Positions 287 to 1,944 are shown, counted from the stretch's first letter. The stretch: DNA of 16,615 nucleotides from Myxococcota bacterium (GCA_040752415.1 JBFMGU010000236.1:1-16615); one strand, 5' to 3'. Notes: generated by a model not told the origin, from the sequence alone. Program-made: numbers and translations.

Positions 287-305
287 TTGAACCCGCAGCG
301 TGGCG

Positions 306-341
306 AGAAGGGTCCGGTGACAACGCCGGGCCTTTTTCTTT
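306..341 (+). terminator. Rho-independent terminator
   Basis: Stem GGTCCGGTG / CGCCGGGCC (with G-U pairs) around an ACAA loop, followed by TTTTTCTTT, about 20 nt after the stop at 286. Confidence 0.75.
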
Positions 342-1031
342 CGACCTGTCCCCGGAGGCGGTCTTCGTCTGGCGCGTGTCGCCGCACCTTGTGGGGCCAC
401 TTCTTTCGATCGGTCCCTCGAGCGGCTCTCCGTCGAGCGGGTGTCTCCGACGTACGTCGTGGAATGCGGTCTGCTGTTCCGTCTGGCGCTTGGAACTCTT
501 GGCTCGGAGGCCAACGGGGGAAAAACCGCAGGGGAATGCGTTGCGCGCGCCAATCGCGGCGCTGGTACCTGTCTCTCGTTTTCATCGTTGGCGTGGCGCG
601 CCTGGTACCCGCTTCGCGTTTCTCATCTCGCTGGCACCTTCCGCCTCTGCCTTTGTCGTCTACGTCTTCGCTGGCTCGTCTTTCCGTCTCCTGGTTGGAT
701 TTTGGTTCCACGAAGAAGAACGGGATTCCCCACCGCGGGTCCCATTTGATTCGCGGCTGCTACGATGACCGCGGCCTTCCTCCGCGCCCGTCCGGCCCAC
801 CGTGTGAGGGTGGTACATCCCATACGCCCGTGAAGCGACTGCGCCGGCCCCCGTGAAGCCGGGCCGGTTACGTATGTGGCGCCAGCGGGCCCGTGGGCCG
901 CTGGTTTCCCGGACAGAATCTGGCAATTCCGAAGCTTATCTCCTGTGCCAACCCCCACTGTGTCTTAGCCCCCCAGCCAGGCATTGTGGCCACGCCGCCT
1001 GGCTGGTTTTGTCCATGGGGCCGGGGGGGCG
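342..1031 (-). ncRNA. Candidate sigma54-dependent long non-coding/regulatory RNA (unassigned; boundaries approximate)
   Basis: Lies directly downstream of a -24/-12 promoter. No ORF with an RBS or coding-type codon bias. Several hairpins (973-1006, 882-904, 844-867) and a purine-rich minus strand with repeated AGAC motifs. Confidence 0.35.
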
Positions 1032-1041
1032 GGAAACGCGG

Positions 1042-1058
1042 AGCACGCGCAGTGCCAA
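1042..1058 (-). promoter_or_regulatory. sigma54 (RpoN) -24/-12 promoter pointing left
   Basis: The minus strand reads TTGGCACTGCGCGTGCT, i.e. TGGCAC-N5-GTGCT with exact GG-N10-GC spacing (consensus TGGCAC-N5-TTGCW). Predicted TSS near 1031. Confidence 0.6.
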
Positions 1059-1097
1059 CCGGCGGGCTCAAGGGCAGTCCGAGTGGAGCAGCCTTTG

Positions 1098-1138
1098 AGC
1101 CTGTCCGAATTCCGGTCAGCCTGTCTGAATTCCCGACA
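1098..1138. promoter_or_regulatory. Tandem 20-bp repeat of a palindromic site, candidate enhancer-binding-protein (bEBP) UAS
   Basis: AGCCTGTCCGAATTCCGGTC and AGCCTGTCTGAATTCCCGAC(A) with a 20-bp period. Copy 2 is TGTC-N9-GACA and copy 1 is TGTC-N9-GTCA. They sit about 70-107 bp upstream of the predicted sigma54 TSS. Confidence 0.5.
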
Positions 1139-1155
1139 CTCGTTCAGCTGTCTCG

Positions 1156-1944
1156 CTACTCCCGCACGATGAGCAGGATGAGCCCGAGCCCGCCGAGGAG
1201 GCTGTACGCTGCGGTCAGCGGGACGGCGAGGGTGAAGAGCAGCTTCTTCCTCGCCGCCGCGTCGAGGTCCCCCAGCACGCCGGAGCCCCGCCAGATTCCC
1301 TGGAATGACGCATGGAGTGCGTACGCGAGCGCGCCGAGGGAGAGGAGCGGTCCCAGGTCGGGCAGCACCCAGAGCACCGCGGCAAACGAGCTGAACAGCG
1401 CGGGCGCGCCGCCCAGGACGGCCACGCGGGAGGCGTTCTGCTTGGCCTCCTTCTTGTCGTCCACCCTCGGCAACACCTTCTCGACGAACTTCCGTCCCAG
1501 CTTGAGTCCGAAGTATCCGAGCGCAATCCACGCCGGGGGAAGCAGGAAGATCCAGAGGGTCGACCAGGTCCGCGTGGTCACGTACGGCTCGACGCCATAG
1601 CTCAGCCCCACGGTGGCCATGCCGGTGGCCGTGCACAACGCCGCCACGCCGGACATCACCACAGCCGCAATGCCCACGCTGGAGCGTTCCCCGAGGAAGA
1701 CACCGCCCTGCGAGAGCGAGCGCTCCCAGCCATCCCTGGGCGCGAACGTCAGCTCCACGACGTCAAAGATGCCCGCCGCCATGCGCGAGGGGCTGAACAT
1801 GGCCACGCCGGTGGCCACCTCGAGCGTGGGACTGCTGATTTCGGGGGCGGGGCCGTCGCCGGTGGGAAGCAGGCGGCCGCACCGCTTGCAGCGCGGGTTT
1901 TCAAAGTTGATGGGGACAAACGCCTTGCAGCCGGGGCATTGCAC
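1156..1944 (-). CDS. Zinc-ribbon plus Yip1-like multi-pass membrane protein
   Basis: N-terminal CPGC...CKRC, then about five hydrophobic helices. GTG start preceded by GGAG. The Yip1 assignment rests on topology resemblance only. Confidence 0.7.
   Translation of the reverse strand: MQCPGCKAFVPINFENPRCKRCGRLLPTGDGPAPEISSPTLEVATGVAMFSPSRMAAGIFDVVELTFAPRDGWERSLSQGGVFLGERSSVGIAAVVMSGVAALCTATGMATVGLSYGVEPYVTTRTWSTLWIFLLPPAWIALGYFGLKLGRKFVEKVLPRVDDKKEAKQNASRVAVLGGAPALFSSFAAVLWVLPDLGPLLSLGALAYALHASFQGIWRGSGVLGDLDAAARKKLLFTLAVPLTAAYSLLGGLGLILLIVRE

Follow-up and report, generated by a model that had tools for sequence, protein, structure and literature searches.

A dispersed intergenic repeat carrying a sigma-54-type promoter in a Myxococcota genome: a candidate family of non-coding RNA genes sharing a promoter architecture with recombination genes

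The locus and its neighbouring genes

The window, by which we mean the whole stretch of 16,615 nucleotides from a Myxococcota bacterium that was analysed, contains close to its left end an intergenic region that the first-pass annotation had delimited as 342-1138. On its upstream side, and co-directional with the promoter described below, lies a minus-strand gene (1156-1944; GC3 0.90) for a 262-aa protein to which neither Pfam nor NCBIfam assigns a family; the stop codon of this gene is separated by 15 nt from the end of the intergenic repeat described below. Divergent from this gene is a plus-strand gene (2031-2912), in whose membrane protein product Pfam recognises an Rce1-like CAAX protease domain (1.2e-07). 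The other flanking gene, whose product is a small membrane-like protein, is convergent and ends at 286, and it is followed on the plus strand by a hairpin with a T-run at 306-344, visible in the sequence and also in a hairpin alignment underlying a chance-level Rfam match, which represents the terminator that had been placed near 341. The non-coding stretch to the left of the intergenic repeat contains two direct repeats (336-449, 65-nt spacing, 76% alike), for which BLAST found no match elsewhere in the genome. The nearest available relative (G001) encodes an ortholog of the 262-aa protein with 48% identity, but a different convergent gene follows this ortholog directly, with neither the intergenic repeat nor conserved synteny, and the comparison of syntenic regions that had been proposed as a check gave no boundary for the unit.

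Within the intergenic region, TTGGCACTGCGCGTGCT at 1058-1042 on the minus strand, which shows one mismatch to TGGCAC-N5-TTGCW, supplies a sigma-54 -24/-12 element of the form TGGCAC-N5-GTGCT (1042-1057, minus strand) situated 44 nt from a pair of palindromic activator sites. The distal site (1122-1138) is an exact match to the TGTC-N9-GACA type, and the proximal site (1102-1118), whose last half-site is GGTCA here, is displaced from it by 20 bp from centre to centre. The consensus of the 17-bp palindrome is TGTCYGAAWTTCRGACA, and that of the genome-wide PWM for the site is TGTCTGAAATTCAGACA. Transcription is predicted to start near 1031 on the minus strand, going by the usual distance to the -12 GC, which would place the site pair at about -71 to -107. 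Both the promoter motif and the two TGTC-N9-G[AT]CA sites at roughly -70 to -107 are present as the first-pass annotation had reported them. Within the window alone these motifs are no better than chance, with five matches to the promoter pattern at up to two mismatches against 8.2 expected, and three matches to the site pattern against 1.15 expected, a count equalled by 30 of 200 shuffles. Their significance derives instead from their conservation across copies in the genome.

A dispersed repeat family at contig ends

A BLAST search with window positions 300-1300 against the assembly from which the window derives (11 Mb in 520 contigs, 96.8% complete), combined with alignment of contig ends, revealed that positions 522-1141 are one diverged copy of a dispersed intergenic repeat with a unit of about 620 bp and at least 16 copies in the genome. 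Each of the 36 non-self matches is no more than 500 nt from the end of a contig. Fifteen contig ends carry the right part of the repeat, stopping at positions equivalent to window 1129-1149, and 13 carry the left part, beginning at window 522-537. Two of the left pieces extend to window 968-982 and two of the right pieces begin at 862, which shows that the unit is continuous in the other copies too. Between left and right contig ends there is an overlap of exactly 127 bases, a hallmark of assembly graphs interrupted by a repeat. Repeats of this kind break short-read assemblies, and since every copy other than that of the window lies at a contig end, the family would be missed by standard annotation of the genome. 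DNA reads from one run (X1) gave short pieces of low depth with no joints across the repeat. The window copy is the only one with both flanks, and was probably assembled through because it has diverged from the others.

The flanks of the copies are mutually unrelated and consist, in both orientations, of housekeeping genes for BON, PEGA, FtsX, thioesterase, AhpC, multicopper oxidase and rhomboid proteins and a hydrolase. The right edge of the repeat is sharp, with homology ending no more than three bases past the distal activator site. The left edge is blurred by tandem units, as the other copies add, beyond the left end, one to four degenerate tandem units of the first 75-130 nt of the unit. 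No longer version of the repeat was found in the genome. Of the span originally delimited, the motifs are all in place, but the repeated unit occupies only about 522-1141.

Conservation of the promoter and its activator sites

The first-pass annotation had singled out promoter conservation as a check on its proposal, and this was borne out across the family. The -24/-12 element is retained as TGGCA[CT]-N5-[GC]TGCT in 16 of 16 copies, with GG-N10-GC invariant in all 16 while the N5 spacer takes eight forms. The distal palindrome is likewise present in every copy (16/16), and the gap between the site pair and the promoter varies only from 42 to 44 nt (16/16). The 110 bp holding the sites and the promoter split into subfamilies with a mean ungapped identity of 0.75; the transcribed side adjoining the promoter is almost uniform across the copies. 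The retention of the motifs while the spacers drift indicates selection on promoter function. The genome also encodes the machinery of sigma-54-dependent transcription, namely rpoN (on contig C476) and 47 bEBP AAA+ domains, recognised as Sigma54_activat matches, and none of the 47 bEBPs in the genome has its gene beside a site pair.

Organization of the non-coding core

The GC content by codon phase is flat across 342-1141, at 0.55-0.75 in each phase, as against GC3 values of 0.87-0.90 for the three neighbouring genes. The ORFs of the window copy differ from those of the other copies, and the copies are set apart by single-base indels. These observations agree with the earlier statement that no credible ORF lies downstream of the promoter. 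A small peptide or type I toxin was considered and ruled out, as no conserved hydrophobic small ORF was found in the copies of the repeat.

When the window copy was compared with a composite of two other copies, the core resolved into three blocks. Block A (737-1031, minus strand) is the conserved part, with 268 of 295 columns (91%) identical to the composite, and across it the other copies show a few scattered differing columns only, the clearest being a hairpin loop at which four of 15 copies differ. Block B (641-736, minus strand) is purine-rich, with ACGGA/GGAA-type repeats, and has 49% identity to the composite, although its purine content is comparable in the two versions (0.65 and 0.60). 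Block C (522-640), the left end of the repeat, contains CTGGTACC repeats and shows 75% identity to the composite over 537-640.

Two hairpins within the core bear on the direction and the ends of a possible transcript. A 10-bp GC-rich hairpin at 973-1006, identical in the 15 other copies except at one loop position, precedes a T-run on the plus strand, which makes it terminator-like in that orientation; on the minus strand it would occupy about +25 to +58 of the predicted RNA and has no U-run. On the minus strand, a weak hairpin at 734-712 followed by a U-rich tail is a candidate 3' end for a transcript of about 320 nt. No second terminator-like site is present on that strand in the window, nor in another copy (L005) that also has this one, and it coincides with the end of block A. 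One hairpin has a G-U pair in the window copy where the composite has G-C, a difference tolerated on the minus strand only, which weakly favours that strand. The minus strand folds no better than its shuffles (z -0.48 for 712-1031 and +0.21 for 515-1035), and the plus strand does slightly better than the minus strand (z -1.90 and -0.88), with four of 100 shuffles as good at z -1.90. The first-pass annotation had envisaged a transcript of about 690 nt running to 341; this length is not upheld by conservation, as the conserved block 737-1031 ends at the terminator-like site at 734-712 and the repeat itself ends near 522.

The core has no counterpart among known RNA families. Rfam had nothing at gathering score in the whole window, only chance-level rows for 300-1200 at E up to 10, and only an irrelevant snoRNA row for three other copies; the Rfam search suggested earlier accordingly matched no family. 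No tRNA or tmRNA was found.

The same promoter architecture at protein-coding genes

The genome was scanned with the pattern TGTC-N9-GACA-N3-TGTC-N9-GACA, allowing up to two mismatches in 16 positions, and 28 occurrences were found as against one in the reversed-genome control. These comprise 16 in the repeats, 11 elsewhere and one doubtful, GC-rich occurrence that looks like chance. Seven of the 11 non-repeat pairs have a GG-N10-GC element 41-55 nt away, scoring at least eight of 11, an element expected by chance in 0.9% of 15-nt windows on each strand. The genes served by such a pair and a sigma-54-like promoter include one of the two recA genes (on C70; TIGR02012, 524 bits; the second is located on C242), radC (TIGR00608, above its cut-off) and a gene for a YifB/ComM helicase-like ATPase (TIGR00368, 588 bits), along with a gene for a trypsin-like lipoprotein and several others without a family. 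Candidate regulon loci in this genome (G000) are C70:19412-20662 (L038), C132:14488-15295 (L040), C187:8370-10017 (L043) and C148:398-1365 (L049). A two-gene operon whose last gene encodes a secreted helix-hairpin-helix protein of ComEA type (TIGR00426, above cut-off) is also preceded by a site pair; the best promoter candidate there, TGGCAC-N5-TTGAT, lacks the -12 GC.

The presence of the same promoter architecture in front of these protein-coding genes suggests that the promoter of the window belongs to a regulon. The layout of a bEBP-type sigma-54 promoter, as recognised by the first-pass annotation, is thus kept in all 16 copies and also seen at protein genes, but its description as an orphan does not hold, given at least 16 dispersed copies and the same architecture before recA, radC, comM and others. 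Taken together with the conservation described above, this makes it very likely that the element is a real enhancer-dependent promoter and a member of a regulon. The set is a candidate regulon for DNA recombination and uptake that would depend on sigma-54 and an enhancer-binding activator. In naturally transformable bacteria recA, radC, comM and comEA are typically co-induced as a set, and a DNA-damage regulon is an alternative label to such a competence-type set. No site was found before dprA or comEC in the genome.

The LexA box was considered as an identity for the palindrome and rejected: the sequence upstream of lexA is of the GTTCAG type and has no TGTC-N9-GACA, which indicates that the motif is not the LexA box. 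The GTTCAG-containing sequence of the lexA upstream region lies on the minus strand of G000 C271 (L046) at 1700-1800, and it resembles the Myxococcus-type LexA box. A further site pair precedes rnc, the gene for RNase III, by about 95 nt (C201:59555-59591, L044), with no sigma-54 element recognised near it; should both strands of the repeat be transcribed, this pair would be of interest.

Recurrence of the module in other organisms

A scan of metagenomes for the pair pattern gave at least 118 loci, of which 80 were taken for analysis and 70 kept after 10 simple repeats had been dropped. In ten of these 70 a strong sigma-54 element (score of at least 9) is separated from the pair by 35-60 nt, usually by 42-43 nt. 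On one contig (L074) the site pair is followed after 43 nt by TGGCACGGAGTTTGCT and then by radC (Pfam RadC, 5.5e-38), and on another (L094) two divergent promoters, each with an 11/11 consensus match, are arranged around a single pair. The Pfam scan covered 53 of 99 candidate ORFs, picked by eye as the longer ORFs of the higher-GC loci. The recurrence of the pair, the 42-43 nt gap and the sigma-54 geometry points to a widespread, unnamed activator family. In genome contigs the strict site-pair pattern had seven matches, in unrelated taxa and at about chance level, and the three nearest genomes gave one doubtful match as against one in each control.

Several other arrangements were encountered in the metagenome contigs. 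In L055 and L105, at about 1100-1240, a pair is followed some 78 nt on by a sigma-54-like element and then by an IS91-family transposase (Y2_Tnp, 2e-32), so that a mobile element is apparently under the same type of switch. Seven loci (L058, L059, L075, L079, L090, L117 and L118) have paired TGTCCG-N5-CGGACA sites with a core near CTTAGC/CATTGC; this second class of pairs adjoins genes for Peripla_BP_6 solute-binding proteins in related metagenome contigs and probably represents the regulon of a different regulator. The contig L130 contains at 1190-1700 a 20-bp tandem satellite of the GTGTCTGGTAGACTGACAGC kind, which gives 46 pattern matches and is unrelated to the repeat.

The core does not recur with the module. 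None of the 80 metagenome loci listed resembles it, their matches being at the site pair only. No homolog was found in 40 relatives, which gave only matches of 31-33 nt in the coding flank, or in 400 Myxococcota genomes, which gave chance-level matches of 21-67 nt (E 7e-5 to 0.01). An exact 24-mer of the core had no match in genome, metagenome or viral contigs, and blastn of the core against phages and plasmids found nothing.

A proposed mode of action and its alternatives

On balance, and with guarded confidence, we favor the interpretation that the repeat is a family of non-coding RNA genes, each about 0.3-0.5 kb long and dependent on a bEBP and sigma-54, that are co-regulated with recombination genes. 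A bEBP would bind the two 17-bp palindromes set 20 bp apart and activate RNA polymerase-sigma-54 at the -24/-12 element 42-44 nt away, and transcription would then proceed from about 1031 leftwards on the minus strand into the non-coding core. The predicted RNA would probably terminate at 734-712, where the weak hairpin and its U-tract lie, and so be about 320 nt long; a polymerase reading on through the purine-rich block to about 522 would make one of about 510 nt. The shorter form is favored because its terminator-like site, the only one on the minus strand, is found in another copy as well and falls where the conserved block stops. Given that recA, radC and comM share the module, the RNA would be made together with functions of DNA recombination and DNA uptake, and it might act as a regulatory RNA of the recombination or uptake state, either by base-pairing or by titrating a factor through its purine-rich tract. 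What the sequence shows is the repeat family, the conserved promoter geometry, its sharing with protein genes, the lack of a coding signal, and rpoN with 47 bEBP genes; transcription and its strand, the RNA ends, the bEBP concerned and any function of the RNA are inferred, and that the product of the promoter is a functional RNA is plausible but unproven. CsrA or Hfq was considered as the titrated factor, and a sponge for either was rejected, as a search of the assembly (96.8% complete) recovered no member of either protein family.

Several observations count against this interpretation. The minus strand folds no better than shuffled sequences, the best canonical terminator-like hairpin (973-1006 with its T-run) belongs to the plus strand, pointing towards the promoter, and no homolog of the core was found outside the genome. 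With CsrA and Hfq both not found, a known chaperone partner is also missing. On the side of the regulon, the ComEA-like operon lacks the -12 GC, and dprA and comEC lack the site. Moreover, 16 copies in unrelated sites need a mechanism of dispersal that an ordinary RNA gene does not have.

As the main rival reading, the repeat could be a selfish, non-autonomous mobile element that captured a bEBP/sigma-54 promoter, perhaps once that of a transposase, and spread by transposition or recombination, its transcript having no role in the cell. Its dispersal into unrelated intergenic sites beside housekeeping genes, the sharp right boundary directly after the distal site, the near identity of copies grouped in promoter subfamilies and the variable number of left tandem units all accord with such an origin, as does the metagenomic precedent of a pair and sigma-54-like element preceding an IS91-family transposase. 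The repeat itself lacks the usual attributes of a mobile element: none of the seven inverted pairs in 300-1200 constitutes terminal inverted repeats, and no transposase lies in or beside any copy. For a target duplication only the window copy, with both its flanks, offered a comparison, and there the left edge is blurred by tandem units. No autonomous partner was found, although a 96.8%-complete assembly could miss one. The genome contains nine Y2_Tnp (IS91-family) matches, on C420, C78, C362, C466, C277, C3, C460 and C458, several of which are very short contigs, so that the genome carries other repeated mobile elements; these matches have neither the site nor similarity to the repeat and are unrelated to it. 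Furthermore, the copies vary less in the core than around the promoter, whereas recent transposition of whole units would be expected to give the opposite pattern, and motifs kept amid drifting spacers speak for selection on promoter function. We regard a selfish repeat of this kind as rather unlikely, while giving it serious weight.

The terminator-like hairpin, kept in 16 of 16 copies, could alternatively mark the end of a functional plus-strand transcript that starts in the CTGGTACC region (about 540-620) and stops at the hairpin and T-run at 973-1015, in which case the sigma-54 RNA would be an inducible antisense that neutralises it or forms dsRNA with it. The somewhat better folding of the plus strand relative to shuffles (z -1.90) and the site pair about 95 nt upstream of the RNase III gene would fit this arrangement, but no plus-strand promoter was recognised: neither the window nor the L005 copy has a sigma-70-like site there, and the CTGGTAC motifs lack the -12 GC. 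One hairpin of the window copy would have an A-C mismatch on the plus strand, and the conserved block adjoins the sigma-54 promoter and not the proposed plus-strand start, all of which makes this arrangement very unlikely. That the promoter-like motifs are due to chance, or that the region is a decayed protein-coding gene, is improbable in the extreme. The motif counts are indeed at chance level within the window alone, but the motifs are conserved in all 16 copies, the pairs number 28 in the genome against one in the control, and the same architecture is found at recA, radC and comM and in other organisms; a decayed gene is contradicted by the missing codon-phase signal and the single-base indels between copies.

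Beyond the family of RNA genes that we favor, the repeat may conceivably belong to a new kind, in which an RNA gene of about 0.5 kb, multiplied to at least 16 dispersed copies evolving in concert, is wired through its own enhancer-dependent promoter into the recA/radC/comM regulon, whose site pair a ComEA-like operon also has; we consider this distinctly unlikely. If it were so, the repeat would be transcribed exactly during DNA uptake or recombination. It could then be a genetic parasite, with transcription at 16 identical loci promoting its own gene conversion or spread, or else a device of the host, with the RNA controlling recombination or incoming DNA. Competence and genetic parasites are the subject of a 2025 review (PMC12378983).

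Comparison with known systems

As a dispersed repeat, the family invites comparison with the pneumococcal BOX and neisserial Correia elements, which are dispersed modular intergenic repeats with variable sub-units in transformable bacteria. Both are shorter than the present repeat, Correia elements have terminal inverted repeats, and we know of no repeat of this type with an enhancer-dependent promoter common to recA, radC and comM. MITEs are dispersed in a like manner, but the repeat described here has neither terminal inverted repeats nor an autonomous partner. No description of such a regulon or repeat was found in the literature searched.

Among known systems, non-coding RNA genes that depend on sigma-54 and a bEBP come closest, and several families of them are available for comparison. 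CrcZ and CrcY of Pseudomonas depend on sigma-54 and the bEBP CbrB, and are RNAs of about 400 nt with repeated short motifs that titrate a protein. The type of motif and the partner of CrcZ (Hfq/Crc) are inapplicable here, and CrcZ has one to three copies as against 16. The Qrr1-5 RNAs of Vibrio come from several sibling genes at different loci; every gene has a sigma-54 promoter of its own and sites for the activator, the bEBP LuxO, and the RNAs are about 100 nt long and Hfq-dependent. In the present genome, by contrast, Hfq was not found, the copies number 16, and the core is far longer and without an Rfam match; copy numbers of 4 and 5 are cited for the Qrr sRNAs in Vibrio (PMC5568312). GlmY and GlmZ of Enterobacteriaceae are encoded by paralogous sRNA genes governed by sigma-54 and the bEBP GlrR through TGTC-N10-GACA sites (PMC3045617). 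The likeness lies in the presence of non-coding paralogs that each combine a sigma-54 promoter with palindromic activator sites upstream of it. GlmY/GlmZ differ in having three N10 sites, where the present repeat has two TGTC-N9-GACA sites at 42-44 nt from the promoter and no evident IHF site. They are also present in two copies, in contrast to 16 dispersed copies with a core of about 0.3-0.5 kb that matches no Rfam family, and the regulon here is one of recombination genes and not of glmS control.

With the Pxr RNA of myxobacteria the repeat shares a non-coding character and a sigma-54 promoter. In Myxococcus, pxr is located between the bEBP gene nla19 and a gene for NADH dehydrogenase, is transcribed from a sigma-54 promoter and gives an RNA with three short stem-loops; in Cystobacter there are tandem paralogs, and every one of these has a sigma-54 promoter of its own (PMC5568312). 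The neighbours of the window copy (the 262-aa protein without a family and the small membrane-like protein) are unrelated to these, and the unit is dispersed and not tandem and several times longer, which speaks against its being Pxr; the first-pass annotation, too, had seen no evidence that the locus is Pxr itself.

On the whole, the repeat differs from the known families of sigma-54-dependent RNAs in its 16 dispersed copies, in its length and in a switch common to recombination genes. If transcribed as predicted, it would be the largest sibling family of sigma-54-dependent RNA genes known to us, and would link a non-coding RNA with an enhancer-dependent regulon, not described before, of recombination and DNA uptake in a Myxococcota lineage. 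The regulon is of interest in itself, as the same pair, 42-43 nt gap and sigma-54 geometry are found in contigs of other organisms, once in front of radC.
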